Shown here: positions 3,009 through 49,016 of the stretch, one piece after another
Numbering within the stretch: the first letter of the stretch is position 1
Layout: every line of letters begins with the position of its first letter
DNA from: Chthoniobacterales bacterium
Lineage (GTDB): Bacteria; Verrucomicrobiota; Verrucomicrobiia; Chthoniobacterales; UBA6821
Assembly: GCA_035287205.1 (NCBI GenBank)
Contig: DATEBV010000358.1
Location: 1-50,300, forward strand
DNA: 50,300 bases
Direction: 5' to 3'
Made by a program: the position numbers and the translations under genes
Notes under the pieces: generated by a model
What the model saw: only the letters and a program-made list of their open reading frames with translations
The model's database searches: none
What the model was told of the DNA's origin: nothing

Positions 3009-4864
3009 ATTGTATTCAAACTCTCCAACGAAATTGCAAGTACTAACAAGAGCCAGACTAACTCATCGAGGCGTTGATCATGCCTAGCAAGAAGCATTAA
3101 CGCTTCTAATCGCTTAGCGGATAATTGTCCTCCTGTAAGATTTTGAAGAGTTCGAGGTAGTTCGTGGCAGCGCAGAGCAAGTTCTCCTTGATGAAGCCAC
3201 TCATGGAGAGGAGGGTTAAATCCTCGTTTTGGTCCCATAACGACTTGAGATCCAATAATACGATCACATAAAAACTTTTTAGGAGGTTGAGTGAAACGTT
3301 CTGAACGTTTCATTCCTTGAATCGATTGAACAAAGAGATGGTCGAGCATTGGGCTGCGTAACTCTAATCCATGAGCCATACCGCAGAGATCTGACTTGCG
3401 CAGGATATATTCAGGAAGGTAGTTCAGTCGATCACAAGCAAGCATCCAGTCAAGAGGTGCAAGTTTTTCTAACGGCTTTTTCCAATAGCTGGTTTGTACC
3501 GCAAAATCAGGTTGCAAAAAAGCACGAGAGAGTGGGTCGAGTGCTGAAAAACGGAGCGTATAAGCATCCTCCCAGCCGAGTTGGTAGCCGAGGAGTATGC
3601 GGCGTAGGCGTCCAGCTCGAGAGGTTTTTAGGCAAAGGTTGGAAGAATTCCAACGTGAAGGCGTTTTCCCATGACGAGGAAGAAGACGTGCCGCACGCTC
3701 ATGAACACCATAGCGCTTGTATCCAGCAAAGAGCTCGTCACCACCATCTCCTGCGAGAGCTACGGTAATTTTTTTAACAGCAGCTTGGCAAAGATACCAT
3801 GTGGGAATAGCCGAAGGATCAGCAAATGGTTCATCAAGATCATGGATAATCGAGAGGGCATCGGAAGGACCCATGGTGATGGGTAACTCTGTATGATTGC
3901 ATTCCCACTGTTTAGCAATTTTGGCAGCGGCTACTGATTCATCATACCTTGGATTATTAGGGAATGTAGCGGTGAAAGTAGATAGTTTAGAAGGGACTTT
4001 ATTATTACCGCTAAGTGAGGCAACAAGAGCTTGAGAATCAATGCCACCGCTGAGAAAAACGCCAAGAGGACGATCAGAAGCGAGGCGAAGATCAACAGCT
4101 TCTCGGAAAAGAAGAGCTGGGTCTTTTTCTGGTGATGGAGTAGGAGCCCAATAGGATTGAGGTTGTTCAATAATCGGTTTCTCTTGGTCGAGGTGTACCA
4201 CCATACTATGCGCAGCAGGCAGTTTATAAAAACCATCAATAATAGAAAGGGGTGCCGGAATATAACGATGTGTTAAGAAGGCATCAATTGCGTTAGGATT
4301 GAATTGAGGTTTTGTATGGGGAGAGGTTAAAGCTAATAAGGCACGAGCTGTACTGGCAAAGGCAAAAGTTCCGTTGGTCGCTGTATAAAAAAGTGGTTTT
4401 TCACCAAGTCGATCGCGTCCTAGAAAGAGGCGCTGTTTTCGCAAGTCCACAATGGCAAAAGCAAACATGCCGCGGAGATGATCTAGAACGGCATCACCCC
4501 ATTCTTCATACCCATGGAGGATAAATTCAGTATCACAATGACTCGCAAAATGGTGACCACGCGACCGAAGTACTTGAGCTTCCTCTTCCCAACCATAAAT
4601 TTCACCATTGTAGACAATCCAGACAGAACCATCTTCATTCTTCATCGGCTGTGCTCCTGCTGATGAAAGATCACGAATACTGAGTCGTGTTTGAAGCAAT
4701 GCTGCTGTTCCTTGGGCAGAGTGATGCCAATGGTTGTTTTCTGAGAAAGAAAAAAAAGTTGTACCTTCTCCATCGGGACCACGGGTACTCAAACAGCTTC
4801 GTGCGTTTATAAGAGACTGCTCACTTAATGTGTTTGAAGAAAAGAGACCAGCTATGCCGCACAT
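3005..4864 (-). CDS. asnB: asparagine synthase (glutamine-hydrolysing) family amidotransferase
   Basis: 619-aa ORF; N-terminal nucleophile MCGIAG, synthetase-domain SGGIDS pyrophosphatase motif; stop codon lies inside repeat A4. Confidence 0.9.
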   Translation of the reverse strand: MCGIAGLFSSNTLSEQSLINARSCLSTRGPDGEGTTFFSFSENNHWHHSAQGTAALLQTRLSIRDLSSAGAQPMKNEDGSVWIVYNGEIYGWEEEAQVLRSRGHHFASHCDTEFILHGYEEWGDAVLDHLRGMFAFAIVDLRKQRLFLGRDRLGEKPLFYTATNGTFAFASTARALLALTSPHTKPQFNPNAIDAFLTHRYIPAPLSIIDGFYKLPAAHSMVVHLDQEKPIIEQPQSYWAPTPSPEKDPALLFREAVDLRLASDRPLGVFLSGGIDSQALVASLSGNNKVPSKLSTFTATFPNNPRYDESVAAAKIAKQWECNHTELPITMGPSDALSIIHDLDEPFADPSAIPTWYLCQAAVKKITVALAGDGGDELFAGYKRYGVHERAARLLPRHGKTPSRWNSSNLCLKTSRAGRLRRILLGYQLGWEDAYTLRFSALDPLSRAFLQPDFAVQTSYWKKPLEKLAPLDWMLACDRLNYLPEYILRKSDLCGMAHGLELRSPMLDHLFVQSIQGMKRSERFTQPPKKFLCDRIIGSQVVMGPKRGFNPPLHEWLHQGELALRCHELPRTLQNLTGGQLSAKRLEALMLLARHDQRLDELVWLLLVLAISLESLNTM

Positions 4865-4865
4865 A

Positions 4866-5054
4866 GATTAGGAGATAGAAGATGGAAGATAGAAGATAGG
4901 AGGTTAGGCCTTCGGCAAGAATATAAGAGACAAAGCATGGAACGAAACAAAATTTAAAAGAGTCAATACAAGCTATACTTATCATAACTACCAACGGTAT
5001 GTTGGTATTCAAAGGCTTTAGATACTATCTTCCATCTCCTATCTTCTATCTTCG
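4866..5054. repeat. Family D element (D1): GAAGATR-heptamer inverted arms around a conserved core
   Basis: Left arm: ggagatagaagatggaagatagaagataggag. Core: gttaggccttcggcaagaa...aaacaaaatttaaaagagtcaatacaagctatacttatc. Right arm: ctatcttccatctcctatcttctatcttc. Abuts the asnB ATG (4862-4864). Confidence 0.88.
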
Positions 5055-5059
5055 GAAAA

Positions 5060-5605
5060 TTAATTATTCAGATTAATTTTCATGGTCTGTCGACGTGAAA
5101 AACGATCGACGAAATGAAGTTCTCCGTGAGCCATGGCAAATTCATGGACGAGTTTTGTGACTTTGACGTCAAAGCAGCAGTACTCAGCAATTTCCATCAT
5201 CTTTCCTTCACGCCACCAGCGAATAGCATCGAGGCCATCACCCGTTTTACCAACGCCTAAGGTAGCACTGGCTACGGCGTCAAGAGAGAGGCGATGTCCT
5301 AATGTTTTTTCGACCACTTCAAGTAGATCAAGTGTTGGTATATAATGAGGGAGGTCCAAGATTGTATATCCCATGAGCACCTCGTAATCGAAGCGACGGA
5401 CATTATACCCAACGACCAGATCGGCTTTGGTGAGTCGATCGATTAAGGCTGGCACGCGAGCTTCACTAAAGATTTCATATTTTCCTTCAGCTGTACTGTA
5501 GGTGACTCCAAGAGAGACTTTCATCGCACTTTTGCGATCCCATCCTCCGACATCATTAGCGGTCAGCTGTGTTTCAAGATCAAAATAAACGATGTCGCGT
5601 GGCAT
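5060..5605 (-). CDS. RNase H-fold DEDD-type 3'-5' exonuclease-like protein
   Basis: 181-aa ORF; FDLET (Exo I), GYNVRRFD (Exo II), YCCFDV (Exo III)-like motifs. Confidence 0.6.
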   Translation of the reverse strand: MPRDIVYFDLETQLTANDVGGWDRKSAMKVSLGVTYSTAEGKYEIFSEARVPALIDRLTKADLVVGYNVRRFDYEVLMGYTILDLPHYIPTLDLLEVVEKTLGHRLSLDAVASATLGVGKTGDGLDAIRWWREGKMMEIAEYCCFDVKVTKLVHEFAMAHGELHFVDRFSRRQTMKINLNN

Positions 5606-5629
5606 GGGAGATTAAGTTAGGGTTTTCGT

Positions 5630-9000: not shown

Positions 9001-10031
9001 TTTTCCTCTGAATCGATGATTGCTTCTTCAAATGTAGTCGTCGTTGTAGGATCAGAGATTGTTGAGTTAACTATTGTTGCATCAGAAATAATAGTTTCTC
9101 CATTACTTCGGTTCTCTTGAGACCTCTGAGTTCTTGCGGTTTCTAGTGCTTCATAAGCAATCTCTTCTTCTTCTCTTGCCTTTGCAAGATCGGCTTCGGC
9201 TGTAGCGCTCTGCGCAGTATCTCTTACTTCAATGGCCATTAATGTAGCCTTAGCTGTTGTTACTTTTGCTTTCGCAAGTTTTTCAACAAGCACTTTGATC
9301 TGATAATTTTCATACGCTTTATCAGCATATTTTTTCCCATGCAGGATGGCTGAAGTAGAGTTGGATCTTTTTTCAGCCAATTCTTTCTCTTTTTGAGCCG
9401 TCTCTAATATTTGTTGGCTCTTTTCTACATCTCTAATGGCTTGTTTCTCTACAGCGGCCCATTCTTTAGCCTCTTGTAGTGCCTCTTCAGAATTGCCACT
9501 AGCGGTTATCTTTCTATTTCGTGACATTTCTGCGACTCTGGCAAGACAGCTTGTATAGATATTATTGTAAATTTCATTTTTAAGAAATTGGGAGGTATTA
9601 TTTTCTTCAAAGAATTCGTCTTCGTCATTTGTTTCCCATGTGATGACGCTTGATGAACTGTTTCTCACAGGAAGAAGTGTTTCGGTGATAGTGCTGACTG
9701 CTGCGCTATCAAGAGAAGTGATTCTTTTTCCAAAAACTCCTAAGGATTCTTCCAATGCTTTTGCCTCTTCGAGTATTGAGGGATTCATCATTAGGTGGCA
9801 CCTCAAGTTTTGACTTGAGTTGTCACAGTTCGCAATTTGCAGTTCGTAGTTCGTAGTAATATTGCCAAGGAGGTTTTGCCTATGGTTTTCAGTCTGTGAA
9901 AAAAGACTGTCGGGAAAAAATATGAAAAGAGAGAGAATTAAAAATATTTGTAAGCGTTCACATCCCCTCCTTCGGAGGACGGATCTGAACCAAATGAATC
10001 GATTGCGAAGTTGTCGTGTGATGTAATGCAT
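6060..10031 (-). CDS. giant Ala/Glu/Lys/Gln-rich coiled-coil protein (function unknown)
   Basis: 1323-aa ORF in its longest form. From ATG 10031 (inside repeat A5) the N-terminus reads like a Sec signal: RRRGCER, then LQIFLILSLFIFF, then PDSLFSQ. Alternative start is ATG 9791, preceded by GAGGTG. Three in-frame tandem duplications are present. Confidence 0.7.
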   Translation of the reverse strand: MHYITRQLRNRFIWFRSVLRRRGCERLQIFLILSLFIFFPDSLFSQTENHRQNLLGNITTNYELQIANCDNSSQNLRCHLMMNPSILEEAKALEESLGVFGKRITSLDSAAVSTITETLLPVRNSSSSVITWETNDEDEFFEENNTSQFLKNEIYNNIYTSCLARVAEMSRNRKITASGNSEEALQEAKEWAAVEKQAIRDVEKSQQILETAQKEKELAEKRSNSTSAILHGKKYADKAYENYQIKVLVEKLAKAKVTTAKATLMAIEVRDTAQSATAEADLAKAREEEEIAYEALETARTQRSQENRSNGETIISDATIVNSTISDPTTTTTFEEAIIDSEENAKVQREALFAPVKNELKTITNMRGRAGRVVKATDSVDQERQGKDHRVTQDTKIFNKSDWAKASTLRDEVEARAARTAPLIKAAIQEVMNPGRAERVNSMVKMLEEVRTVKTAFALLRTEFQKIKEISDKTKTQSEDALTVANNAQKSTQQTTDITAKVQAKMLKLQGECTETTQTAKNTKAFVQQALATAQEELQKTSATAEEAKTHAKRAETVASKATFTATTAEDHSEEAKAQAEKATTIAEKAQEKAEQAAKDAQEATIYAAKALQTVGITQKAPQTVGITQSPVAMKISVAMKIIQQVKSVANTLLQALEHAKTEKFESMVQSLQSAQNSQTSLDNEINHEINHEIKEKINEEINYKMKATQAEAEENHEIAHIWNFAAQAPHNKKSTEAAVKCVEHLLKAQEAQSENKTLAQQERELAGQFWILAQQPAQKATEEIFNALLKSQEARAKGDQNLATCWRETAKQYQNYQEYTQMGYSNPSMDLSEKCAVALKKCALYETQASEARVAGNPELVSSWATTAKQFQTIAQLYDQWIKASEACKPSEEIQRLNAKIYAEAATAETLIKSAEYFTKAHETHIANNQELAACYKEVAESLKKEPSQGNRPPIIEALVKQAEYSEKAQKAQAAGRQELANLFKGLAANHHTLSLDSPQIHQQLEEARRNEQNARSSYDSQCNRSTNDQYAYQQRDEAYKRLQKEQQKVNELSQLPNLINTARQYIQSAPPQIERLEKEAGYLEKAQQAQVRGDSEQATAWKKLLEQFQHAQRIIQQAPQQINSYQQQMNQSGQDRSRAQQYITGLNCKLASANRMNNQTLPMLVTWLERTQEAQSVENKNSCKTVVQQLQKALDEDQKVLQSAENTLMDNCPVTQAASVANQLAHNLAQRTEQLWKTYKHQETLQSNWDLAEQSLTHWSEAVQLIKTVLENKSQTTQALKAGKQEEARSSAQKAKEAAKAALVEIEKVQEEMIKSLCEKK
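7951..7986 (-). repeat. 12-bp in-frame tandem repeat (about 3 units) inside the giant ORF
   Basis: atttcatggttt atttcatggttt atttcattgtct; encodes NHEI-NHEI. Confidence 0.85.
8106..8141 (-). repeat. 18-bp in-frame tandem duplication inside the giant ORF
   Basis: aattttcatagcaactga / aattttcatagcaactgg; encodes VAMKIS-VAMKII. Confidence 0.9.
8147..8206 (-). repeat. 30-bp in-frame tandem duplication inside the giant ORF
   Basis: gggtgatgccgacagtttggggcgcttttt / gggtgatgccgacagtttggagcgcttttg; encodes the peptide QTVGITQ twice, one copy per unit. Confidence 0.9.
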
Positions 10032-10051
10032 AGTTTGTTGAGGAGCTACTT
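9950..10051 (-). repeat. Family A element (A5), sense and upstream of / fused to the giant coiled-coil ORF
   Basis: The reverse complement reads agtagctcctcaacaaactatgcattacatcacacgacaacttcgcaatcgattcatttggttcagatccgtcctccgaaggaggggatgtgaacgcttac. Its ATG is the first codon of ORF 6060-10031. Confidence 0.88.
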
Positions 10052-10086
10052 TCGAAGGAGAGGAGGCAGAACGGTTATATTTTTGG

Positions 10087-10147: not shown

Positions 10148-10359
10148 ATTAATACGCTGATTAAGATTTGATAGATCACTCTGATGATTAATTGATTCTC
10201 TGCCACATTTTACCGATGGGTTAACCGAATATTTACTATTTTTGTATGGTTGTTTTTAAGCCGCCGAAAAAACTTGCGGTTAATTAAGTGATAGTGTAAG
10301 AGTAACAACTTGCCTTTCCTTATGTCAAATCAAGATTGGCTTTTTGATTCCTTTAATTT

Positions 10360-10443
10360 ATGCATTACATCACATTACGACTTCGCAGTCGATTCATTTG
10401 GTTCAGATCCTGCCTCCAAAGGAGGGGGATCTGAACGCTTACC
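10360..10443 (+). repeat. Family A element (A6) ending exactly at the infA start codon
   Basis: atgcattacatcacattacgacttcgcagtcgattcatttggttcagatcctgcctccaaaggagggggatctgaacgcttacc followed directly by ATG 10444; hairpin 10400-10436. Confidence 0.92.
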
Positions 10444-10662
10444 ATGGCAAAAGAACAAGCAATTACTACTGATGGGGTCGTCTTGGAGGTTCTCCCTGGT
10501 ACGATGTTTCGTGTCAGATTATCCAATGGGCATCCTGTTTTAGGGCATATCTCAGGGAAAATGCGAAAGCATTTTATCCGTATTGTTCCTGGAGATAAAG
10601 TTACTGTAGAGATGTCTCCATACGATTTAACTAAGGCGCGTATTGTTTTCCGTACTGCGTAG
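10444..10662 (+). CDS. infA: translation initiation factor IF-1
   Basis: 72-aa ORF; near-canonical IF-1 S1-fold sequence ([20 protein letters not shown]...[16 protein letters not shown]). Confidence 0.95.
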
Positions 10663-10738
10663 ATGTTCAGATTTCCCCTCCTTTGGAGGAAGAATCTGAA
10701 CTAAATGATTAAAATACGAAGTTATAGTGTGAATGCAT
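10659..10738 (-). repeat. Family A element (A7), inverted, between infA and the acyl-CoA synthetase
   Basis: gtagatgttcagatttcccctcctttggaggaagaatctgaactaaatgattaaaatacgaagttatagtgtgaatgcat. It overlaps the infA stop TAG (10660-10662) and contains ATG 10705 of the next ORF. Confidence 0.88.
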
Positions 10739-12813
10739 TGCGTAATTTTTTATCGAGGAAAGGTAACAATAAAATAAAGACATCTTGTTTTACTTCAATT
10801 GCTCCACAGCAGAGACTGAGTGTTTACGAGAATTCGAATATAGCAGCCCTTTTTTTATGGGCTGGTGAATCTTGGGCTGCCAAGCCAGCCTTTGCAACGC
10901 GTCATGATGATGGAAATTTCCATGCGGTGAGTTACCATGAGTGGTGTGACCGTTCCCTCAATTTAGCAACAGCATTAATCGACCTTGGTGTTGCTGCTCG
11001 TGAGCATGTGGGGTTATTTAGCGATAATCGCTTGGAATGGATTTTAGCCGATGCGGCCGTTCAGTTTTGTGGTGCTGCTGATGTTCCTCGAGGGAGTGAT
11101 ATTACCGATGAGGAGATGGTTTATATTCTCAACCATGCTGATATTAAGGTTCTTTTTTTAGAAAACAGCTCTTTGCTCCACAAAATGGAATCCGTTAAAG
11201 AACGTCTTCCTAACCTTTGTCATGTGATTCTCATGGAGGATGCGACCTCTTCCTTTTCGGAGATTAGACTTCTTTCTTTACAAGAATTAGAGATGAGGGG
11301 TGAAACCTTACGTCTCGCTGGAGATCGGCGTGTGGAGGAACGTCTTGATCAAATCGCTGCCGAGGATCTCTGTACGATGATCTATACTTCAGGAACAACA
11401 GGAATTCCTAAAGGGGTGCAGCTGACCCATGCTGCGATAGTTTCACAGATACGCAATGTTCCTTTTGGAAAAGGGGTCAGTCCCCGGATTTTGGAAAAAA
11501 GATCAGGGACTGACCCCTTTTCTCAGAATCCGGGGACTGACCCCTTTTCTGACCCCTTTTGTGAATTTCGAGCACTTTCGATTTTGCCTGTTTGGCACAG
11601 CTATGAACGGATTTTTGAAATTATTACTATTAGCCAAGGGGGGTGTACTTACTATACCTCCTTGCGTCATCTGGCTTCAGATTTTCGTGCTGTACGTCCG
11701 ACGGTGATCGCTTCTTCGCCAAGGCTTTGGGAAGCGCTTTACGAACGGATGATGAAGGGGATTAAGGAGCAGCAAGGAATGGCAAAAAAAATGGTTTTGC
11801 TAGCTCTTTGGTCAGCTAATGCTGTGGGTGAAGCGAAGCGTTTTTTTACAGGGCAACAGTGTGATCTCACAGGAAGGTCTTGGATTAGTTCTTTAGCCTG
11901 TTCTCTAATATATAGTTTGCAATGGATGGTTGCCATTATTCCTTTTCTCTGGCTCGATCGACTAGTCCTTGCGAAGTTTCGCAGTATTGTGGGAGGAGAA
12001 CTCAAGGCCACTATTTCAGGAGGAGGGGCGCTTCCTCCTTACATTGATCGATTTTTTAATAATATCGGTATTGCGCTTCTCGAAGGGTATGGACTTACCG
12101 AGAGTGCTCCTGTATTAGCCGTTCGAACCTTGCAGCATCAGGTTATTGGGACGGTGGGCCCTCTTTTGCCAGAAACAGAGATCAAAATTATCAATTGTGT
12201 CACCGGTGAAACTCTTTATCCTGATTCGTCACAATGTGATTTAGGAAAGGGACTGCGCGGTGAAATTTGTGCTCGAGGCCCTCAACTCATGAAAGGATAT
12301 TATAAGGATCCTGAAGGAACGGAACGAGTTCTTCGCGATGGATGGCTTCATACAGGTGACATTGGCATGATGACTTTTAATAATTGTCTTAAAATTGTCG
12401 GTCGTTGTAAGGAGACCATTGTCCTTCGAAGTGGTGAGAATGTAGAACCATTGCCCATCGAATCACGTCTTCTGGAATCACCTCTTATTGCTCAATGCAT
12501 TGTTGTTGGCCAAGATCAAAAGTATCTTGGAGCATTGATTGTTCCTTCTCTTAATGGGCTAGGTAAGCATGGCTTAAACGCAACATCTCTGATGGAACTA
12601 ATGCAACAGAGGGAGGTACTGCACCGTTTTTTTAGGGAAGAGATACGACGTCTTGTAAGTGCTGAGCATGGTTTTAAGCCATTTGAACGTATTGTTGTCT
12701 GGCATTTACTCTCCAAACCGTTTGAAATTGGAGATGAACTTACTGCTACTTATAAATTAAAACGCCATGTGATTGCTGAGCGGTATAAGGAAGAGATTGA
12801 GGGAATATTCTGA
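10705..12813 (+). CDS. long-chain acyl-CoA synthetase (AMP-forming)
   Basis: 702-aa ORF; motifs YTSGTTGIPKG, GYGLTESAP, GWLHTGDIG. The first ATG lies inside repeat A7 (alternative TTG at 10738). Carries an in-frame palindromic insertion at 11466-11560. Confidence 0.85.
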   Translation: MIKIRSYSVNALRNFLSRKGNNKIKTSCFTSIAPQQRLSVYENSNIAALFLWAGESWAAKPAFATRHDDGNFHAVSYHEWCDRSLNLATALIDLGVAAREHVGLFSDNRLEWILADAAVQFCGAADVPRGSDITDEEMVYILNHADIKVLFLENSSLLHKMESVKERLPNLCHVILMEDATSSFSEIRLLSLQELEMRGETLRLAGDRRVEERLDQIAAEDLCTMIYTSGTTGIPKGVQLTHAAIVSQIRNVPFGKGVSPRILEKRSGTDPFSQNPGTDPFSDPFCEFRALSILPVWHSYERIFEIITISQGGCTYYTSLRHLASDFRAVRPTVIASSPRLWEALYERMMKGIKEQQGMAKKMVLLALWSANAVGEAKRFFTGQQCDLTGRSWISSLACSLIYSLQWMVAIIPFLWLDRLVLAKFRSIVGGELKATISGGGALPPYIDRFFNNIGIALLEGYGLTESAPVLAVRTLQHQVIGTVGPLLPETEIKIINCVTGETLYPDSSQCDLGKGLRGEICARGPQLMKGYYKDPEGTERVLRDGWLHTGDIGMMTFNNCLKIVGRCKETIVLRSGENVEPLPIESRLLESPLIAQCIVVGQDQKYLGALIVPSLNGLGKHGLNATSLMELMQQREVLHRFFREEIRRLVSAEHGFKPFERIVVWHLLSKPFEIGDELTATYKLKRHVIAERYKEEIEGIF
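11466..11560. mobile_element. Palindromic GGGACTGACCCCTTTT-type repeat cluster inserted in frame in the acyl-CoA synthetase gene
   Basis: Perfect 22-bp inverted repeat: aaaaggggtcagtccccggatt (11469-11490) / aatccggggactgacccctttt (11527-11548). Extra right-arm copies at 11506-11521 and 11549-11560. Encodes GKGVSPRILEKRSGTDPFSQNPGTDPFSDPF. Confidence 0.8.
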
Positions 12814-13704: not shown

Positions 13705-14855
13705 CCTTTTCCCCCATTATTGCCAGTACAGGAGAGTGGTTGCATGGTACTGGTCCTCACAGTGAAATTGTAGTGAGTAGTCGCGTACGACTTGCTCGTA
13801 ATCTTGAAGGGAAGCCTTTTCCAGGGTGGGCCAAAAAGCCAGAACGGCTTGCAGTGATGGAAGCCTTATTGCCTGTGATTGGAGCTCTTCCTGAGATGGC
13901 ATCTTCTTTTTCTGAAAAAATGGAGAATTTGACCCTTCTTGAAAAGCAAATGCTCGTAGAGCGTCATCTTATTAGTCATGAGCATGCTGCTAAATCGGTT
14001 GGAGGAGCTCTTGTGATGAATGCAGCACAGACGTTAAGTTTCATGATTAACGAGGAAGATCATCTGCGAATGCAGGCCATCCGTTCAGGTCTCCAGCTTC
14101 ATGAAGCTTTTGCCATGATTAACCAAACAGACAGTGAGTTGGAAGAGGTCCTCCCTTTTGCTTTTCATCATGAGTTGGGATACCTGACAGCCTGTCCTTC
14201 AAATGTTGGAACGGGTATGCGAGCCTCCGTGATGCTTCATTTGCCGGGTCTTGTGATTTCTGATCAGATCAACAAAGTTATTAATGCCGTTAATAAAATT
14301 ACTTTTGCAGTGCGTGGTATTCATGGCGAGGGAACTGATGCTATTGGCAATCTCTTTCAAGTTTCTAATCAAATAACTCTTGGAGAGAGCGAGGAGGAGA
14401 TTATCAATCGCCTTCATAAGGTAGTTACTCAGATTCTGCAACATGAGAAGAATGCGAGGACAATGCTTCTCCAGCAACAAACTGAAAAATTACTCGATCA
14501 AGTAGGAAGAGCTTATGGAATATTATTCCATGCTCATTCTATTGCTACCAAGGAGGCGCTCAACCTTCTTTCTTTTATTAAAATGGGAATTGATCTCCAT
14601 CTTTTTCCTGATGTTCATCGTTTGGCCATTGATGAACTTTTTATTGAGACACAGCCAGCTCATTTACAAAAGAGTTTGAAAATCTCTTCTGCTCTAGAAT
14701 CAATTTCTTCTTCAGTAAGCTCTTCTGTGAATTGTGCTGCGACAGAAAAAATGACATCTCAGCAACGAGATTCCTTGCGCGCAGTTGTTATTCAGAAGAG
14801 ATTACAATGCATGCCTGCACCGTGTTATTCGGCCAACAGGCCGAATAACGTTTAA
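13701..14855 (+). CDS. mcsB: protein arginine kinase (ATP:guanido phosphotransferase)
   Basis: 384-aa ORF; guanido-kinase signature CPSNVGTGMRASV; C-terminal YSANRPNNV is read through an ATTCGGCC/GGCCGAAT hairpin. Confidence 0.85.
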   Translation: MTFSPIIASTGEWLHGTGPHSEIVVSSRVRLARNLEGKPFPGWAKKPERLAVMEALLPVIGALPEMASSFSEKMENLTLLEKQMLVERHLISHEHAAKSVGGALVMNAAQTLSFMINEEDHLRMQAIRSGLQLHEAFAMINQTDSELEEVLPFAFHHELGYLTACPSNVGTGMRASVMLHLPGLVISDQINKVINAVNKITFAVRGIHGEGTDAIGNLFQVSNQITLGESEEEIINRLHKVVTQILQHEKNARTMLLQQQTEKLLDQVGRAYGILFHAHSIATKEALNLLSFIKMGIDLHLFPDVHRLAIDELFIETQPAHLQKSLKISSALESISSSVSSSVNCAATEKMTSQQRDSLRAVVIQKRLQCMPAPCYSANRPNNV

Positions 14856-18582: not shown

Positions 18583-18670
18583 TAACTACCGACATCTATG
18601 GTAACTTTTCAGTCCCCTTTTCTCCGGAGATGAGCTCTGAACTATAGGCTACAGGAGCAGATAGCTGTTT

Positions 18671-35541: not shown

Positions 35542-35596
35542 ATTAGGGAAGTAGTAACCACCAATGTTGGTAGTTGAGAGATAGAAGATAGAAGAT

Positions 35597-35674
35597 TGCA
35601 TTTTAAATGATTACTTTGCAGTCCGATTATTTAATTCAGATCCGTCCTCCGAAGGAGGGGATCTGAATGCCTAC
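35597..35674 (+). repeat. Family A element (A13), antisense at the 3' end of the hydrolase gene
   Basis: tgcattttaaatgattactttgcagtccgattatttaattcagatccgtcctccgaaggaggggatctgaatgcctac; encodes the hydrolase C-terminus and stop on the minus strand. Confidence 0.88.
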
Positions 35675-36670
35675 TTCACGTTCAATAGCCGTAATGAGTG
35701 AGGAGGGATTGGCTAAAGGGGCAAGGAAACCAGGTGATTCTACTTCTGTAATAGAAAAACGATGAGCCAAGGGGCGCAGGCTCGTGATAGTTTCTGTTGT
35801 TTGACGGTTTGATTCTTGCGCTACAAGTAGTGCTATGGGAGCCGTGATCGTTGTTAGCCTTGCTGGAAGACTACGCCAGAATTTACGGGAGCTTTGAGCT
35901 AAAAAAGCATGCTCAGTTCCATATTGTTGTGCTGTGGATGTTAGGACAGTGAGGATTTCTTCAAAAGAGGGATCTTCGGAAGGAAAATGAGAGCGGATAA
36001 GCCAGTTTCTAATAGAAGCCTCTGTGCTTAACTGACGATGATAGACTAAGCGTGCAAGAGGGGGAAACCAAGAAAGAGAATAGGTGCCTGCTAAAGGGAA
36101 AGGACTTTTAGTTCCTTTTATGGCCAATAAAGGCATCCAGAGAAGAAGACGCACCACTTTATTGGGATAGGAGGCGCTTAAAAGAAGAGCAAGGTTAGCA
36201 CTCAGTCCCGAAGCAATAATAGTAACTGGCTTACCCTTGGTTGTGGCTTCTAGAAACTCTGCAAGAGAACGTGTTTGGGCATGAGCAGAGATGGCAGGAC
36301 GAGGGCGCTGAGACTCTCCGAAACCAATCAAATCAGGAACTAAGACCTGATAATTAGGTGCAAAGTGAGGATACACTTTAGACCATTCGAAAGAGGACGC
36401 CCCTGGGAAAACACCATGGAGAAAGAGGAGAGGCTCTCCTTCTCCTGAAGTATGATAAACGATTTCACCCGAAGAGGTATTTAGAACACGGGTGGCAAAG
36501 ACGGCGGGTGAAATAGCTTCTGAAAGAGGACTACGCAATGGATTTTTCCAACCTGATCGAAGTGCTAAAAGAAGAGCTCCTAGAAGTCCCACACCAAGAC
36601 CCGCCCCAACACTCATACCGATGGGGGAGAGCTTGTCCGGAGAATGATTTTTTTTAAAAGACTTGCTCAT
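35636..36670 (-). CDS. alpha/beta-fold hydrolase with N-terminal membrane anchor
   Basis: 344 aa; LLFLHGVFPG oxyanion-type HG motif, nucleophile-elbow-like IIASGLSAN. C-terminal GIQIPSFGGRI is encoded by repeat A13. Confidence 0.65.
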   Translation of the reverse strand: MSKSFKKNHSPDKLSPIGMSVGAGLGVGLLGALLLALRSGWKNPLRSPLSEAISPAVFATRVLNTSSGEIVYHTSGEGEPLLFLHGVFPGASSFEWSKVYPHFAPNYQVLVPDLIGFGESQRPRPAISAHAQTRSLAEFLEATTKGKPVTIIASGLSANLALLLSASYPNKVVRLLLWMPLLAIKGTKSPFPLAGTYSLSWFPPLARLVYHRQLSTEASIRNWLIRSHFPSEDPSFEEILTVLTSTAQQYGTEHAFLAQSSRKFWRSLPARLTTITAPIALLVAQESNRQTTETITSLRPLAHRFSITEVESPGFLAPLANPSSLITAIEREVGIQIPSFGGRI

Positions 36671-37863: not shown

Positions 37864-37950
37864 GGTAACTATTCGGCCAATAGGCCGAATGTAAGTTTAA
37901 GTTGTAAGTTTAAGTTGAAGTTGATTTTTGGTCACTTCGTGACAATGTAA
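37864..37950 (+). repeat. Family C element (C2) filling the whole purF-purM spacer
   Basis: ggtaactATTCGGCCaataGGCCGAATgtaagtttaagttgtaagtttaagttgaagttgatttttGGTCACTTCGTGACaatg. Abuts the purM ATG (37861-37863) and ends 4 nt from the purF stop. Confidence 0.9.
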
Positions 37951-37954
37951 AAAT

Positions 37955-43651: not shown

Positions 43652-43885
43652 AGACTTCTTTGAAAATTCGCCTATGCTAATGAAGTACAAGGAGTCTACG
43701 GCGCGCAAAACCTGAGTGTACAGCAGTACTCGATGGTTTAAGATCGAAACTTTTATTTCCATCGTAGCGAGACGTAGCGTTCATCGAATCTTCCGCAAGT
43801 CGTAGTAGATGGAAATAAAAGTTTCGTTCTAACACCGGAGCGACGAAGTAATTTATTAGCAGAAGTAGAATTTCCAAAGAAGTCT
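43652..43885 (+). repeat. Family E element with outer arms and an internally deleted core (E3)
   Basis: Outer arms: agacttctttgaaaattcgcctatgctaatgaagtac / gtaatttattagcagaagtagaatttccaaagaagtct. Inner 22-bp stem: 43742-43763 / 43808-43829. 28-nt block cctgagtgtacagcagtactcgatggtt at 43711-43738. Ends 1 nt before ATG 43887. Confidence 0.85.
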
Positions 43886-43886
43886 T

Positions 43887-44904: not shown

Positions 44905-44941
44905 CTGTAGCCTGCCACCTGTAACCTGTAACCTGCTGCTT
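44905..44941 (+). repeat. CCTGYAR heptamer tract abutting the lysA start codon
   Basis: ctgtagcctgccacctgtaacctgtaacctgctgctt-ATG. Confidence 0.85.
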
Positions 44942-46351
44942 ATGCATTCTTTTCATTACAATCATGGAACTTTTCACTGTGAAGAAGTTGATCTAACTAC
45001 CGTCGCTAAAGAGGTGGGAACACCAGCTTATGTCTACTCAGCGAAAACTGTTCTTGAAAACTACCGTCGTCTTAACCAGGCATTAAATCCTCTCGATCGG
45101 ATGATTTGCTATGCAGCCAAGGCCAATAGTAATCTTGCTATCCTTGGTTTATTAGCCAAAGAGGGAGCTGGGTTTGATATTGTTTCTGGAGGAGAGCTCT
45201 TTAAAGTATTGAAAGCAGGAGGACGTGCTGATCGTTGTACTTTTGCCGGCGTAGGGAAAATGGTTTTTGAAATTGAATATGCACTTAAGCAAGGAATTTA
45301 TTGCTTTAACGTTGAGTCAGAGGGGGAGTTAGAGCTTATCAATGAGGTAGCCGAACGACTTGGGTGTGTGGCTCCTATAGCTCTTCGTGTAAATCCTGAT
45401 GTTGATGCACCAACGCATCATTATATTTCTACAGGGAAGAGTAAAAATAAATTTGGCATTGGGCTCGATCGCGCTGAAGCTGTTTATGCGCGTGCAGCAG
45501 CACTTCCTTATCTTAAGATTCGGGGGCTCCAGACGCATATTGGTTCTCAGATTTTAGACGCAGCTCCTTTTGCAGAGGCTGTCCATAAATTGACGCCCCT
45601 TGTTAGGAAGCTTCAAAAACTTTATGGATTAGAATTTTTTAGTATAGGAGGGGGTGTAGGGATTGGCTATCGTGGCGCTTTAGCAAGTGATCCGGCTTGC
45701 ATGAAGCCGATGACTGCGGCGTTGGACTCGAAATCTTTCTCAGGCAGTATGCCCCTATACAGCCATCCTCAGATTTCATCGTCCGCCTTGCAGCATCGCC
45801 GTCCTGCGTCGCCGGATAATGAGGTATCAGGTCTGAGTCCAGAGGCCTATGCAGCTCAAGTTATTGAACCACTACGAGCGCTTGGTTTAAGGATTCTTTT
45901 TGAACCTGGGCGTTTTATTGTTGGTAATGCAGGGGTGCTTTTAACAACAGTTCTCTATCGCAAGTCGACACCTGCCAAGAATTTTCTGATTGTTGATGCT
46001 GGTATGAATGACCTTATTCGTCCTGCACTCTATCAAGGCTATCATGAAATTGAACCACTTCGGGAACCCATTGATCGTCCTCTAGAAAAGATCGATGTAG
46101 TCGGTCCTGTCTGTGAGAGTGGTGATTTCTTTGCTCAAGATCGTATGATACCTCGTGTTGAACCTGGAGAACAAGTAGCACTCATGAGTACGGGAGCTTA
46201 CGGTTTGGTGATGGGTTCTAATTATAATGCACGTCCTATGCCACCCGAAGTTCTCGTGGAAGGAAAAAAAGCGACCGTGGTGCGGAGACGGCAGACCTGG
46301 GAGGATCTTATTAGCCTGGAGGTACATATTCGGCCAACAGGCCAAATATAA
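44942..46351 (+). CDS. lysA: diaminopimelate decarboxylase carrying an in-frame repeat insertion
   Basis: PLP-Lys context YAAKANSNLAIL, GGGVGIGY, VVGPVCESGDFF. About 45-50 extra residues after GIGYRG are encoded by E-family core 45690-45817. C-terminal IRPTGQI is read through the C3 hairpin. Confidence 0.9.
   Translation: MHSFHYNHGTFHCEEVDLTTVAKEVGTPAYVYSAKTVLENYRRLNQALNPLDRMICYAAKANSNLAILGLLAKEGAGFDIVSGGELFKVLKAGGRADRCTFAGVGKMVFEIEYALKQGIYCFNVESEGELELINEVAERLGCVAPIALRVNPDVDAPTHHYISTGKSKNKFGIGLDRAEAVYARAAALPYLKIRGLQTHIGSQILDAAPFAEAVHKLTPLVRKLQKLYGLEFFSIGGGVGIGYRGALASDPACMKPMTAALDSKSFSGSMPLYSHPQISSSALQHRRPASPDNEVSGLSPEAYAAQVIEPLRALGLRILFEPGRFIVGNAGVLLTTVLYRKSTPAKNFLIVDAGMNDLIRPALYQGYHEIEPLREPIDRPLEKIDVVGPVCESGDFFAQDRMIPRVEPGEQVALMSTGAYGLVMGSNYNARPMPPEVLVEGKKATVVRRRQTWEDLISLEVHIRPTGQI
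45690..45817 (-). mobile_element. Family E core (E5) inserted in frame within lysA
   Basis: Ordered shared blocks with the reverse complement of E4: cggcttg, gatga, ctgcg, ggact, cagtatg, atacagcc, tcgtcc, gccttgca. Inverted ends atccggc (45690) / gccggat (45811). Visibly more GC-rich than the flanking lysA sequence. Confidence 0.72.
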
Positions 46352-46465
46352 GTTTAAGTTTTAAGTTTAAGTTTAAGTTGATTTTTGGTCACTTCGTGAC
46401 AAAGTGAAAAGTGAAGCGGCATTTTTATTTGCACCTAGTTTTTTGCTTTCAAAGTCGCTTCAGGA
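46326..46465 (+). repeat. Family C element, long form (C3), overlapping the lysA 3' end
   Basis: atATTCGGCCaacaGGCCAAATataagtttaagttttaagtttaagtttaagttgatttttGGTCACTTCGTGACaaagtgaaaagtgaagcggc...gtcgcttcag. The lysA stop (46349-46351) follows the hairpin. Confidence 0.9.
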
Positions 46466-47622: not shown

Positions 47623-47633
47623 AGGCTGTAGGA

Positions 47634-47890
47634 AAAAATTCACCACAAGGAACACAGAGATACACAAAGAGCACAAAAAAAGAATTTTTATAAAAATTCT
47701 TTAACATGTTAAGAACTAAAGAAGATTAGTGAAAATAAATCATAACGCATTAGTTATAAACATAATAAATATTTTTGAATTCTCTTTTTAACACTGGGTT
47801 TGCGTTCACAATTCCCCACTTTAAAATTTTTTATAAAAAATTTTATCTATGTGTTCTTTGTGTATCTATGTGTTCCTTGTGGTGAATTTC
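47634..47890. mobile_element. Family B element, GAATTCACCACAA subfamily (B6)
   Basis: Left arm: aaaaaattcaccacaaggaacacagagatacacaaagagcacaaaaaaagaatttttataaaaattc. Right arm: aaaattttttataaaaaattttatctatgtgttctttgtgtatctatgtgttccttgtggtgaatttc. Arms match B2, but the central cores are unrelated. Confidence 0.85.
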
Positions 47891-47916
47891 TGCCAACTAC
47901 GATGACATTTGTATAA

Positions 47917-48873
47917 CTACGAACAGTTACCTTGGTAGTTTTGCATGAGTTCTAAGAATCCCGCTTCAAGAGCCAATGCTTCCTGAATACCTTGTTCCAA
48001 GGAACGGCGAAGTGACTCGATGGCATCTAGAGACCGCAGTAGGCATTTCGTTTCATTTTCACTCATTTTTTGTTCGTGATTTTCCTTATAAACAGCACGT
48101 AATCGAGCTCCAAAATAGTCTGCTAAGGAGCCGAGTAAAAAGGTGCGTTGTTCGAGTGCTGTTGCTTCAGAAGAAGCTTTAAAATATTCGTCGCGTTGGT
48201 TTTCCCAATTACCTTCTGTTGTTTTGCTATAATGTTTTTTTTCAGCATTAAATTCTTCTTCTGCCGCATTAAGGGCCTCTTCTCGTGCTTCCCCTAGCAA
48301 TGCTTGAAACGAACGCGCTAGTTGAAACGCTGCCGTGGCATCTGTAGGTGCTCCAGGAGCAAAAAATTTCTCCATAAGAAGAGTCACTTTTTTTTCTTTC
48401 TCTTCAAGAGGGCGTTCTTCTTTAGAGTGAATAGAGAGAAGAATACAACGTGAACGAATTGTTTCTAATAAGGCTTCTGGTAAGGTTGTTAGTAAGAGTA
48501 GGAGAGTGCGTTCTGGTGGTTCTTCAAGCGTTTTAAGAAAAGCATTCGCTGCTGCAGGAACCATCCGATCAGCATCTTCAATAACAGCTACTTTATAGGA
48601 ACTTATTTGAGATTTGAGATGAAGTTCTTCCTCAAGCTTGCGGATCTGTTCGGTAAGAATTTTTCGTGATTTTGATTCGGGAGCTATTTGGTGAAAATCG
48701 GGATGTGTAAGAACATGAAGTGGACCGCATCCTAAGACTAAGGCTGCAACTTCCTCGCTAAGGAGTCGAGCTCCAGCATGAAGGTTGCCAGAAATAAGAT
48801 AAGCATGACCAAGGCGATCTTCGGTAGTAGCTTTTTGTAGAAAATGAAGTGCTTCTTCTTTAGAAAATGCCAT
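47917..48873 (-). CDS. holB: DNA polymerase III delta-prime subunit
   Basis: GHAYLISG, KVAVIEDADRM, ANAFLKTLEEPP, IRSRC motifs. Confidence 0.8.
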   Translation of the reverse strand: MAFSKEEALHFLQKATTEDRLGHAYLISGNLHAGARLLSEEVAALVLGCGPLHVLTHPDFHQIAPESKSRKILTEQIRKLEEELHLKSQISSYKVAVIEDADRMVPAAANAFLKTLEEPPERTLLLLLTTLPEALLETIRSRCILLSIHSKEERPLEEKEKKVTLLMEKFFAPGAPTDATAAFQLARSFQALLGEAREEALNAAEEEFNAEKKHYSKTTEGNWENQRDEYFKASSEATALEQRTFLLGSLADYFGARLRAVYKENHEQKMSENETKCLLRSLDAIESLRRSLEQGIQEALALEAGFLELMQNYQGNCS

Positions 48874-48876
48874 GAT

Positions 48877-49016
48877 AATTATTCGGCCAACAGACCGAAT
48901 ATAAGTTTAAGTTAAAAGTTTAAGTTTAAGTTGATTTTTGGTCACTCCGTGACGAGTTGAGAAGCGAAGCGGTGGTTTTATTTTTTCCCAATTTTTGATT
49001 TTGAAGTCGCTTCAGT
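48877..49016 (+). repeat. Family C element, long form (C5), abutting the holB start codon
   Basis: aattATTCGGCCaacaGACCGAATataagtttaagttaaaagtttaagtttaagttgatttttGGTCACTCCGTGACgagttgagaagcgaagcgg...gtcgcttcag; starts 3 nt from the holB ATG (48871-48873). Confidence 0.9.

Follow-up and report, generated by a model that had tools for sequence, protein, structure and literature searches.

Repeat systems comparable to the one studied here have been described as REP2, RPE, Borrelia IR, MIRU and GTAG-REPs, and in Neisseria REP2 marks a co-regulated gene set. We analysed a stretch of 50,300 nucleotides (the window) from a lineage of uncultured Verrucomicrobia close to Chthoniobacterales, for which a sequence-only reading had proposed that several repeat families serve unrelated genes as interchangeable leaders independent of Shine-Dalgarno (SD) sequences, always in the same orientation. 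All of the repeat-start junctions that it quoted were found in the sequence. We explain them, with a probability of about 0.6, by two layers together: a general filling of gene junctions with repeats, and a MITE, here called family A, that would supply start codons.

Repeat coverage was measured in an unbiased 60 kb of the Chthoniobacterales-like MAG, where repeats made up 53–65% of intergenic bases vs 4.7% of coding sequence. Since intergenic DNA here consists mostly of small mobile repeats, repeats that touch start codons are expected. Coverage at positions –1 to –5 of starts was 37%, which is under the intergenic mean; in the same 60 kb, the first 30 nt were repeat-covered in 18–25% of genes and points within the last 30 nt in 16–30%. 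Stop codons were abutted or overlapped by the same repeat families about as often as starts, and the proposed enrichment at start codons did not hold for repeats in general. The repeats outside family A lie in the window as follows:

4865..5059, no strand, second heptamer-armed unit, filling the whole spacer from the stop of an RNaseH-like gene to the asnB ATG
14820..14855, no strand, hairpin C within the last codons of mcsB
18483..18615, no strand, composite element C, whose hairpin gives hemA its TAA stop (18485-18487)
29194..29365, no strand, MITE-like unit of family D19 with heptamer (TAGAAGA / TCTTCTA) inverted arms
30176..30461, no strand, 286-nt MITE, TIR GGTAACTACCAACGT, lying between the stops of tatD and dnaN
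33272..33306, minus strand, CCTGYAG heptamer array ending 5′ of the dnaA ATG (33271)
35501..35542, minus strand, CCTGYAA heptamer array flush with the SSF symporter ATG (35500)
37864..37954, no strand, composite element C (D2, D6, D12), the whole spacer from the purF stop to the purM ATG
43652..43886, no strand, family E MITE (D14, D16) with ~30-nt TIRs (AGACTTCTTTGRAAA...), ending 1 nt before the ATG at 43887
44905..44941, plus strand, CCTGTAA heptamer array ending 5′ of the lysA ATG (44942)
46321..46452, no strand, composite element C, with its hairpin within the last lysA codons (...IRPTGQI*)
48874..49005, no strand, composite element C flush with the holB ATG

Relatives show how short these junctions can be. 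The hemA-hemC spacer is 8 nt or –11 nt in relatives vs 202 nt here, the hemC-cobA spacer is 43 nt in a relative vs 200 nt here, and the dnaA-dnaN distance is ~90 nt in a 98.4%-identical strain vs 338 nt here. The 3′ ends of dnaN and tatD overlap in the 98.4%-identical strain, and the MITE at 30176..30461 is missing from the 98%-identical strain with these overlapping ends.

The heptamer arrays, hairpin C and family E do not behave as oriented leaders. CCTGYAR heptamers end 3–8 nt 5′ of the ATG of dnaA (33271, minus), the SSF symporter (35500, minus) and lysA (44942), and the dnaA array is also kept in the 98.4%-identical strain. Arrays of this kind were found in both orientations, and 10 of the 12 strictly matched ones were not flush with a start, a count based on a strict pattern that missed the SSF and lysA arrays. 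ATCTTCY heptamers end 3–5 nt 5′ of the ATG of asnB (4864, minus) and tatD (29366); they form the pair of inverted arms of a single element, which at tatD occupies the entire spacer from the epimerase stop, and the interior of the asnB copy is inverted relative to the tatD copy while both present the same leader. Hairpin C, a perfect palindrome, ends 0 nt 5′ of purM (37863, minus) and holB (48873, minus). In the purM copy, the palindromic hairpin GGTAACTATTCGGCC..GGCCGAATAGTTACC is followed by (AACTTA)n and then by a GGTCAC..GTGACC hairpin. Among 50 copies of hairpin C, 10 were flush to starts and 13 to stops. The ATCTTCY arms, hairpin C and family E are symmetric, so that their orientation is uninformative. 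The claim of one orientation in every case says nothing for these families and is wrong for CCTGYAR and also for family A, of which 11 of 63 copies are antisense; as interchangeable leaders, the heptamers, hairpin C and family E are not supported. The starts themselves are backed by homology for asnB (MCG...) and infA (MAKE...), and the Pfam profiles of tatD, holB and dnaA begin at residues 1–7.

SD-like 4-mers at –18 to –5 were found at 3 of 147 starts (2%) vs a background of 10.5%, and the G content at –7 to –1 of starts was 7–12%. We conclude that this genome does not use SD sequences. The lack of an SD-like run is a property of the whole genome and not of the repeat leaders. In the general layer, TIR-type MITEs, palindromic hairpins and heptamer-armed units, all of them families of small non-autonomous mobile repeats, would have filled junctions that were once compact, and an insertion into a junction of 0–40 nt would contact both flanking genes. 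Because no SD sequence has to be spared, repeats that reach a start codon or extend into the first and last codons of a gene can be retained, so that they abut starts and stops alike. The shared leaders of unrelated genes are thus a by-product of junctions filling with repeats.

Family A is different. It is ~113 nt long, carries a hairpin tagged with GTAG and shows a target duplication of 7 bp. Its 5′ module carries stop codons and is followed by an ATG in an A-rich, G-free context that resembles native starts; the reading frames then remain open through a 13–16-bp CCTCC/GGAGG hairpin up to the 3′ end ...GATCTGAACGCCTAC(C), with the GTAG tag on the other strand. The copies are 80–95% alike along their full length, and the hairpin is preserved in 54 of them, with some two-sided changes. 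The copies in the window are:

1041..1112, plus strand, partial antisense copy, ending 1–6 nt past the RRM gene stop
1940..2056, minus strand, copy before the RRM-protein gene, ending 5 nt before its ATG (1941), with a mutational TAA that closes the element frame
2913..3021, plus strand, antisense copy, whose GTAG end provides the asnB stop (TAG, 3005-3007)
9943..10053, minus strand, fused to a 1323-aa secreted coiled-coil ORF (the giant ORF), ATG 10031, in the Arg-rich third frame
10336..10449, plus strand, flush with infA (CTACC end 10443, infA ATG 10444)
10647..10754, minus strand, antisense copy, whose GTAG end provides the infA stop (TAG, 10660-10662)
18665..18785, plus strand, fused to hemC (98 bits by nhmmer), for which the element ATG (18690) is the sole start available
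18890..18974, plus strand, internal in-frame copy in hemC (71-nt element 18897-18967)
19990..20105, plus strand, fused to cobA/hemD, element ATG 20009, 16-bp perfect hairpin
21760..21877, plus strand, fused to a NAGPA-domain gene, ATG 21789, in the second element reading frame
23448..23541, plus strand, fused to scpA, ATG 23459; a GTG 1 nt past the element is a possible alternative start
35579..35688, plus strand, antisense copy overlapping the last 12–17 abhydrolase codons and giving the gene its TGA (35636-35638)
49719..49800, minus strand, degenerate copy fused to tmk, ATG 49795 (17–21 bits, the weakest copy)

The fusions to hemC, cobA/hemD, scpA, tmk and the giant ORF that had been reported are present, and the NAGPA fusion had been missed. 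In hemC, the element encodes residues 1 to ~27, and the stretch from the element to the conserved ILGTRGS motif has no ATG, GTG or TTG. Residue 6 of the PDB HemC aligns with query residue 29, and homologs at 76–81% identity begin MSTKSSLILGTRGS, without the N-terminal extension and without a 26-aa internal insert. This insert is a second copy flanked by the 7-bp duplication AGGAGAT (18890-18896, 18968-18974), and element plus duplication add 26 codons; it is missing in 10 of 10 aligned homologs, each with a single TGDA, and the PDB alignment has a gap at query residues 72–107. In cobA/hemD, no canonical start was found ahead of LVGAGPGD, the element RNA folds at –37.8 kcal/mol (z = –4.2), and the CobA of the relative with the 43-nt spacer begins MTKSAKKQQ...GICFLVGAGPGD. 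The ScpA Pfam profile begins at residue 57. Residues 2–5 of the PDB Tmk align with query residues 29–31, with no in-frame start in between. In the coiled-coil ORF, the hydrophobic core of the signal peptide begins at the junction, and its homolog P0126 begins MKILFSLSTILL... at the equivalent position. At infA, the element ATG opens a uORF of 24 codons in the frame of infA; the TGA of GATCTGAAC closes it 9 nt short of the infA ATG. The antisense copy at 10647..10754 overlaps the longest-ORF start of an AMP-ligase gene.

The census covered 63 copies in ~270 kb, namely the window and 24 metagenome loci that were retrieved via the family A pattern and whose gene models came from an in-house ORF and codon-usage caller. 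The sequence was identical across at least five independent assemblies. In line with the sequence-only reading, the distribution at gene 5′ ends was strongly non-random, with 43 of 63 copies lying there in sense. In-frame N-terminal fusions from the element's own ATG accounted for 29 of these 43, and in none of the 29 did the interval between 2 nt ahead of the element end and 15 nt beyond it contain an in-frame ATG. Another 10 were flush, with ATG gaps of 0, 0, 0, 0, 3, 3, 3, 4, 5 and 9 nt, and in all 10 the in-phase element frame was closed by a stop. ATG-open frames occurred in the gene's phase in 22 of 32 cases vs 18% per phase in copies away from 5′ ends (p = 5e-10). Eleven copies lay antisense beside gene 3′ ends, seven of them with the stop codon inside the element, and ~10 lay elsewhere. 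Full-length family profiles placed the native N-terminus ~3 residues or less from the junction in GatB, Mpl, QueD, HpnD, HutH and Wzm, and PDB sequences likewise placed it there in HemC and Tmk; in CobA, too, the native N-terminus lay at the junction. In a library of 1.84 billion proteins, unrelated proteins carried element-derived peptides, both at residue 1 and at internal positions.

These results suggest that family A is best read as an RPE/REP2-like MITE that supplies start codons, and about one-fifth of genes appear to owe it their start codon and their first ~27 amino acids. When a copy inserts in sense at the opening codons of a gene, translation would run from the element ATG into the gene and add an N-terminal extension of 22–34 aa. 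Where a stop, be it the TGA of GATCTGAAC or a different one, interrupts the in-phase frame, the gene would keep or need an ATG 0–9 nt after the element, possibly served by termination-reinitiation; antisense copies would end upstream genes with the element TAG or TGA. We infer the mobility mechanism, as well as persistence through rescue or tolerance of insertions at gene ends. The proposal of a portable translation-initiation module is largely supported by the sequence for family A, in a stronger form with its own ATG in frame with dozens of unrelated genes, and is not supported for the other families.

A possible though unlikely alternative is that the 5′ enrichment reflects mainly insertion bias and not selection, with a transposase that targets the start-codon region through an AT-rich, G-poor signature, a resident repeat, or a DNA structure linked to transcription or translation. 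N-terminal copies (39) far outnumber internal in-frame copies (~4) and unclassified ones, the first few codons are a small target by rough estimate, the element 3′ end is intact at nearly all junctions, and medium-length copies are often preceded by (AACTTA)n, hairpin C or some other repeat. However, no target consensus was visible at the junctions, the candidate duplications differ in sequence, and 11 antisense copies at 3′ ends and ~10 elsewhere are not at starts. Targeting is compatible with the start-supplying MITE, which would still need its ATG. The absence of a native ATG at the junction in 29 of 29 fused copies despite the intact 3′ end, and the ~7:1 excess of N-terminal over internal copies, have no obvious cause in simple insertion plus selection, and some gene-start targeting may be needed.

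Somewhat less probable is that family A is an untranslated 5′ leader or non-transcribed DNA and that the fusions are ORF-calling artefacts, with genes starting at the junction from a near-cognate codon (ATT, ATA, ATC or CTG) or from GTG or TTG. NCBI's PGAP places ATT starts right after the element at 20096 (cobA) and 23543 (scpA) and CTG/ATT starts for two other genes, an Ile codon lies within 4 codons of the junction in 16 of 29 fused copies, and GTG or TTG lies 1–5 nt past the element in scpA and at loci L141 and L142. A weak –35/–10-like match lies 3′ of the element ATG; if it is used, this ATG would be absent from the mRNA. Yet all 10 genes with a closed in-phase frame have a proper ATG at most 9 nt away, which argues that an ATG is required in this genome. 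Open ATG-initiated frames are ~4-fold enriched in the gene's phase, which an untranslated leader does not need, and no near-cognate codon occupies the native Met position at the Mpl, HpnD and HutH junctions.

It is improbable that family A is a selected cis-regulatory leader whose CCTCC/GGAGG hairpin binds a protein (e.g. the RRM protein, 1114-1941) or acts as a thermosensor, with ~20% of genes in one post-transcriptional regulon. The hairpin is very stable, and its conservation includes some compensatory changes; housekeeping genes carry copies, two copies flank the RRM gene itself, and REP2 offers a precedent. Against this, the likeness extends over the whole length and beyond a motif, as in young mobile DNA, a target duplication has matching empty sites in relatives, some copies are antisense or intragenic, transposition may be what preserves the hairpin, and no functional coherence was seen in the gene set. 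Chance juxtaposition in a repeat-saturated genome is very improbable for the whole set and already contradicted for family A: total coverage beside starts does not exceed the intergenic mean and heptamer arrays are mostly non-flush, but family A has 43 sense vs 11 antisense copies with gaps of 0–9 nt, a perfect 29/10 split of flush ATG by frame state and the excess of in-phase open frames, and hairpin C lies within 12 nt of a gene boundary in 23 of 50 copies vs roughly 14% expected (an estimate for a 200-nt spacer).

The proposed start-supplying MITE has described counterparts, contrary to the statement that no system of this kind was known. Family A itself has weak TIRs, and empty sites support just one of its target duplications.

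All of the junctions between repeats and start codons quoted in the sequence-only reading were found in the sequence, and several of the starts concerned are secure, those of asnB and infA by homology (the products begin MCG... and MAKE...) and those of tatD, holB and dnaA by Pfam profiles that begin at residues 1-7. That reading had taken repeats at the ATG of about 15 of 39 genes as special, yet repeat saturation alone predicts that number. When the window plus 10 kb of the same contig (60 kb, unbiased) was masked by comparison against ~280 kb of sequence, repeats accounted for 53% (at least two matches) to 65% (at least one match) of intergenic bases versus 4.7% of coding bases, and their coverage at positions -1 to -5 of starts, 37%, was lower than the intergenic mean. 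In the same 60 kb, repeats extended into the first 30 nt of 18-25% of genes and, at points within the last 30 nt, were present in 16-30% of genes. Stop codons, too, have members of the leader families flush with them or overlapping them, and only half of this picture had been seen before: hemA takes its TAA stop from hairpin C, the palindromic hairpin of composite element C, and an abhydrolase gene has its 3' end inside family A, a MITE-like element with its own ATG. Among 50 copies of hairpin C, 23 were located within 12 nt of a gene boundary (10 at starts and 13 at stops), compared with ~14% expected as an estimate under uniform placement. For the tandem heptamer arrays, 10 of 12 strictly matched CCTGYAR arrays were not flush with a start, by a pattern that missed the arrays of SSF and lysA, and neither were 12 of 19 ATCTTCY arrays.

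The lack of a Shine-Dalgarno (SD) motif, proposed earlier as a property of the repeat leaders, turned out to be general. Of 147 starts without a family A leader, 3 had SD-like 4-mers at -18 to -5, compared with 10.5% of random 14-mers, and G made up 7-12% of the bases at -7 to -1. SD motifs are depleted genome-wide; since the whole genome initiates without SD, their absence is not a repeat property and the bases before the ATG are unprotected. The proposal that repeats keep one orientation relative to the gene stood only insofar as family A is asymmetric; family A itself was found both ways, and the other families are symmetric or unfixed. Hairpin C is a perfect palindrome, and terminal inverted repeats (TIRs) are clear in the MITE E (~30 nt), in a 286-nt element and in a 170-195-nt unit with inverted heptamer arms. 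This last unit, whose right-hand arms are the ATCTTCY 'leaders', takes up all of the spacer between the upstream stop and the ATG; its interior points in opposite directions in the asnB and tatD copies, so the same leader arises from either orientation. Arrays of the CCTGYAR type run in either direction and are often found at the flanks of long-form family A copies. Families B, C and E and the 286-nt element are each multi-copy, small dispersed repeats. The general shared-leader pattern is best read as the filling of compact junctions with repeats in a genome that initiates without SD, and shared leaders are an expected by-product of this saturation.

Two further observations concern these small repeats. 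Hairpin C was found inside the last codons of three genes, always in the frame encoding I-R-P-x-G-(R/Q)-I, and owing to the palindrome this peptide is nearly the same in both orientations; the unrelated database protein P0141 likewise ends ...NIRPTGRI. Another abundant family, AATAGCCACAAAAGAACACAAA with CACAAA(G)AA repeats, is also present in the 10 kb left of the window. It gives the giant ORF and queF their TAG stops, and in reverse orientation it precedes hflX, queC, argB and a TPR gene by 7-26 nt.

Dispersed repeats inside and between genes
14827-14846: hairpin C, last codons of mcsB
46328-46347: hairpin C, last codons of lysA
46850-46869: hairpin C, last codons of argB
5672-5700, 6030-6061, 39560-39720, 43574, 44561, 46605: AATAGCCACAAAAGAACACAAA family

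The window has a GC content of 42%, and 38 of its ORFs were annotated by Pfam. The same DNA was present at 99.98-100% identity in a Rifle aquifer NCBI MAG (GCA_001830205.1) and again in several ENA and Logan assemblies produced independently, so the repeats are not an assembly artefact. The closest HemC homologs carry the source names Chthoniobacterales or Verrucomicrobia and no HIP1 sites were found in the window; a cyanobacterial origin (STRR/HIP1), our first suspicion, was dropped on these two grounds. GC skew was positive over the whole window (1-50300) with no sign change at dnaA-dnaN; although these two genes are paired and a 627-nt spacer lies upstream of dnaA, the window therefore shows no evident replication origin. 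The protein-arginine kinase system mcsA-mcsB-clpC, best known from Firmicutes, is present here in a Verrucomicrobia lineage. Three tandem paralogs are each followed by a near-identical terminator-like hairpin (AACGGCGCTGGATTTATCCAGCGCCGTTTTTTT).

Host genes in the window
13015-17452: mcsA-mcsB-clpC cluster
25530-27790: three tandem paralogous genes for small outer-membrane beta-barrel-like proteins
30462-31574: dnaN
31913-33271: dnaA

Family A is ~113 nt long, contains no transposase gene and has 63 dispersed copies in ~270 kb. It consists of an optional 5' module (CTGTTCAGTAGCTTCTCAA), AAACT-ATG-CA, ACTTCGCAGTC, the hairpin TTCAGATCC-TCCTCC-GAA-GGAGG-GGATCTGAA and the 3' end CGCCTAC(C), which reads as a GTAG tag on the opposite strand; the palindrome with the GTAG end is GTAGGCGTTCAGATCC...GGATCTGAAC, and the element ends are GGTAGGCGTTCAG. 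The hairpin was kept in 54 copies, with some two-sided change in 6 of 13 pairs, and in the cobA copy it reached -37.8 kcal/mol in context (z = -4.2). For TIRs there is a weak match in long-form copies (AGGC(T)GTTCAG / CTGAACGCCT), and one related copy has perfect TIRs (GTAACCGTTCAG). The 7 nt ahead of the element ATG are A-rich and G-free, and no ribosome-binding site was found in the element ahead of this ATG; the GGAGG of the hairpin is downstream of it and ~20 nt upstream of a flush ATG. Downstream of their ATG, 3 copies have a weak promoter-like match, TTCACA-17-GATCAT (9 of 12); across the region, promoter-like matches were no more numerous than in shuffles. Scanning the window for Rfam families and tRNAs gave no hits, and family A is thus no described RNA family. 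A scan of database genome contigs with the 15-mer GATCTGAACGCYTAC gave chance matches in unrelated genomes only.

Sigma-70-like TT(C/T)ACA-17-(G/A)ATCAT at a fixed position in family A
20019-20047
21794-21822
10705-10733, minus strand

The copies were placed relative to genes in the window and in the 24 metagenome loci retrieved by a specific 23-base family A pattern (219 kb in total, none overlapping the window, nearly all from one IMG genome), which were selected for containing family A and not for its position relative to genes. Genes in these loci were called with our own codon-usage ORF finder, which recovers the genes of the window, and a threshold of at least 30 bits gave 63 copies in window and loci together. 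A coding ORF was present at the 3' end of 43 copies in the sense orientation (68% upstream of genes or fused to genes). Of these, 29 were fused: an element ATG lies in the frame of the gene, that frame stays open across family A, and the stretch between 2 nt before and 15 nt after the family A end contains no in-frame ATG. Another 10 were flush, with an ATG 0, 0, 0, 0, 3, 3, 3, 4, 5 or 9 nt past the element, and in all 10 the in-phase element frame was closed, in 8 by the TGA of GATCTGAAC and in 2 by a mutational stop. The split was perfect: a closed frame with a flush ATG (10) versus an open frame without one (29). Three of the six stop-closed flush copies that retain the 5' part contain an ATG...TGA uORF of the element in the ATG frame of the gene, ending 9 nt ahead of it. 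Furthermore, full-length copies had an ATG-initiated open frame in the phase of the gene in 22 of 32 cases, compared with 18% per phase for copies not at gene 5' ends (p = 5e-10). Eleven copies were antisense beside the 3' end of a gene, whose stop codon falls between 69 nt inside the element 3' end and 111 nt past it, and in 3 of these (including asnB and infA) the gene stop is the TAG of the tag; ~10 copies belonged to neither the sense-5' nor the antisense-3' class. In the unbiased 60 kb, family A affects 9 of 46 genes (~20%). N-terminal copies of family A exceed internal ones about 7:1. Closed-frame copies are followed by an ATG within 9 nt, and open-frame copies precede genes that have no ATG of their own and, as their reading frames predict, must use that of the element.

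Two more observations concern reading frames. Two signal-peptide proteins read family A in its Arg-rich third frame (MH.ITRQLRNRFIWFRSVLRRRGCERL), which directly precedes the hydrophobic core, and cytoplasmic enzymes use the other two frames; with n = 2 this may be coincidence. The palindromic ATGCAT in an antisense copy is the start of an 87-codon ORF that has no Pfam match and that some pipelines call a gene; it may be spurious.

Other reading frames at family A copies
9949-10031: Arg-rich frame in a signal-peptide protein
2568-2680 of metagenome locus L140: Arg-rich frame in a second signal-peptide protein
2671-2934, minus strand: 87-codon ORF

Comparison with homologs located the native N-termini just past the element. 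Residue 29 of the window HemC aligns with residue 6 of the PDB HemC, and residues 29-31 of the window Tmk align with residues 2-5 of the PDB Tmk; HemC homologs start MSTKSSLILGTRGS. In GatB, Mpl, QueD, HpnD, HutH and Wzm, position 1-6 of the full-length NCBIfam profile sits 1-5 residues past the element-encoded part, and the homolog of the giant ORF starts (MKILFSLS...) exactly at the element end. No ATG, GTG or TTG was found between family A and the conserved N-terminal motif in hemC, cobA or tmk. Predicted N-terminal or semi-tryptic peptides include MQSIHITTSQSNHLIQIPPPLEEVSEPLIILGTR for HemC and MHCIHTTTSQSDHLFQIFPPK for CobA. When a profile of the element peptide was searched against 1.84 billion representative proteins, ~20 convincing matches in unrelated proteins were obtained, 8 with ...QSDHFIQSAPPQEVGSERL at residue 1, 3 near the N-terminus and about 9-10 with it internally, the internal ones mostly in large secreted coiled-coil proteins; one matching protein also ends ...IRPTGRI, the hairpin C peptide. 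A 40-aa profile of the peptide gave nothing significant against 5.8 billion sequences, a database size for which the peptide is too short.

Empty sites and short junctions were seen in relatives. A second, internal family A copy in hemC (71 nt, window 18890-18974) is in frame and adds 26 codons; it has a 7-bp duplication, AGGAGAT, on either side, and 10 of 10 aligned homologs lack it. Other duplications of 7-10 bp are candidates only. The 286-nt MITE is absent from a 98%-identical strain, which has an empty site. Insertion into junctions as short as those of the relatives necessarily touches both genes.

Junctions in relatives and in the window
hemA-hemC: 8 nt or -11 nt in relatives (71-76% HemC identity); 202 nt in the window
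hemC-cobA: 43 nt in relatives; 200 nt in the window
dnaN-tatD: 3' ends overlap in the 98.4%-identical strain; 286-nt TIR MITE in the window
dnaA-dnaN: ~90 nt in the 98.4%-identical strain; 338 nt in the window
30176-30461: the 286-nt MITE (TIR GGTAACTACCAACGT), between the dnaN and tatD stops; compared with 4300-4360 of L005, the locus from the 98.4%-identical strain

The 286-nt MITE re-creates the tatD stop and alters the last TatD residues, and the dnaA-dnaN spacer holds a different repeat sequence in the 98%-identical strain. For the infA copy of family A no empty site was found, and an exact-protein look-up of infA matched the same genome only.

From its sequence, family A appears to behave as an RPE/REP2-like mobile element whose sense strand is able to start translation. 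A competing explanation is that the true start would be a near-cognate codon just past the element, as the NCBI pipeline implies by choosing ATT for cobA and scpA; it is weakened by the proper ATG present at every closed-frame copy. The positions of family A may reflect an insertion bias or the survival of rescued insertions, and the 7:1 N-terminal excess together with the intact element ends at junctions without a native ATG hints at some targeting. Neutral loss of a native ATG that had been retained in fused copies is unlikely, since at ~85% identity among copies ~60% of such codons should survive and 0 of 29 do. Deletion of the native start after insertion was dropped, the element 3' end being intact at nearly all junctions, as was insertion of the long-form copies just after a native ATG, the 27 nt upstream of their ATG being conserved.

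Non-canonical starts in the NCBI MAG annotation
20096: ATT, cobA
23543: ATT, scpA
10816: CTG, AMP-ligase
39376: ATT, purF

Other pipelines place these starts at upstream ATGs, and gene callers thus disagree systematically at repeat-led genes.

A bolder version of the RPE/REP2-like reading, to which we assign a probability of roughly one in four, is that family A would be a transposable 'start-codon cassette', a MITE that has evolved stops at the 5' edge, an SD-independent start, frames open through the hairpin and a reinitiation stop. Such a cassette could settle in the opening codons of essential genes and perhaps home in on them; about one-fifth of proteins would start in a mobile element, and the shared hairpin would be a genome-wide handle for post-transcriptional control. 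If HemC, CobA, Tmk, GatB, Mpl and others do begin in a repeat, this would be the most extensive supply of start codons and N-termini by selfish DNA known to us, REP2 and RPE being smaller in scale or differently positioned, and SD-independent initiation would relax gene-boundary constraints and allow mobile DNA to remodel protein termini. In practice, callers pick the element ATG, ATT or CTG, and the annotations and protein families of such lineages are systematically affected.

Several known repeats share parts of this behavior. Neisseria REP2 and Borrelia IR-A/IR-B are dispersed repeats of ~100-150 nt with internal inverted repeats, and REP2 lies in sense just upstream of many unrelated ORFs (14 genes), to which it contributes a promoter and a ribosome-binding site, together with an ATG fused to the ORF, features also carried by the IR repeats (Delihas, 2011; PMC3184786). 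Compared with REP2 by description, family A is likewise in sense directly upstream of ORFs with its ATG fused to the ORF (43 of 63 copies, 29 of them open in frame, with use of the ATG predicted), but it has no SD in an SD-free genome and only a weak promoter-like match, downstream of the ATG; it is also intragenic, antisense at 3' ends and associated with a target duplication, and affects ~20% of genes versus 14 genes. Rickettsia palindromic elements (RPE) insert in frame into unrelated housekeeping genes and add a conserved peptide (Ogata et al., 2000, via PMC10969869); they are mostly internal to proteins and CGTC-tagged. Family A, again compared by description, resembles RPE in its in-frame insertion, its conserved added peptide and the empty sites in orthologs, whereas its copies mostly occupy the very N-terminus and appear to provide the start codon, all three of its frames are used and its end is of the GTAG type instead of CGTC; its host is a free-living Verrucomicrobia lineage and that of RPE an obligate intracellular alphaproteobacterium.

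GTAG-tagged REPs carry a hairpin and GTAG at one end, with the TAG often serving a flanking ORF as its stop codon and some copies within ORFs, and are reportedly abundant in the verrucomicrobium Opitutus terrae; REPs are 20-40 bp and mainly downstream of genes, and their proposed mobilization by RAYT tyrosine transposases leaves no target duplication (Di Nocera et al., 2013; PMC3733652). At asnB and infA, antisense copies of family A likewise give TAG stop codons, but family A is ~113 nt, has a 5' ATG module, is mostly upstream or fused and shows a 7-bp duplication. MIRU are intercistronic repeats whose small ORFs overlap adjacent gene ends in a polycistron (Supply et al., 1997, via PMC3184786), with empty and filled sites and short direct repeats; they form tandem VNTRs at ~40-50 loci, and replacement of a downstream native start codon is not reported. 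The uORF of the infA copy stops 9 nt short of the infA ATG and is MIRU-like, although family A is without the tandem VNTR structure. BRE, BOX and ERIC sometimes extend the ends of ORFs. Cyanobacterial STRR heptamer repeats reportedly form tandem arrays in intergenic DNA, as do the heptanucleotides of the window, but the ATCTTCY arrays seen here serve as inverted arms within MITE-like units, the CCTGYAR-type arrays flank long-form family A and the host is not a cyanobacterium. Family A combines traits of REP2/IR, MIRU, BRE/BOX/ERIC, RPE and GTAG-REP elements and differs in its lack of an SD, in its N-terminal dominance and in its scale.
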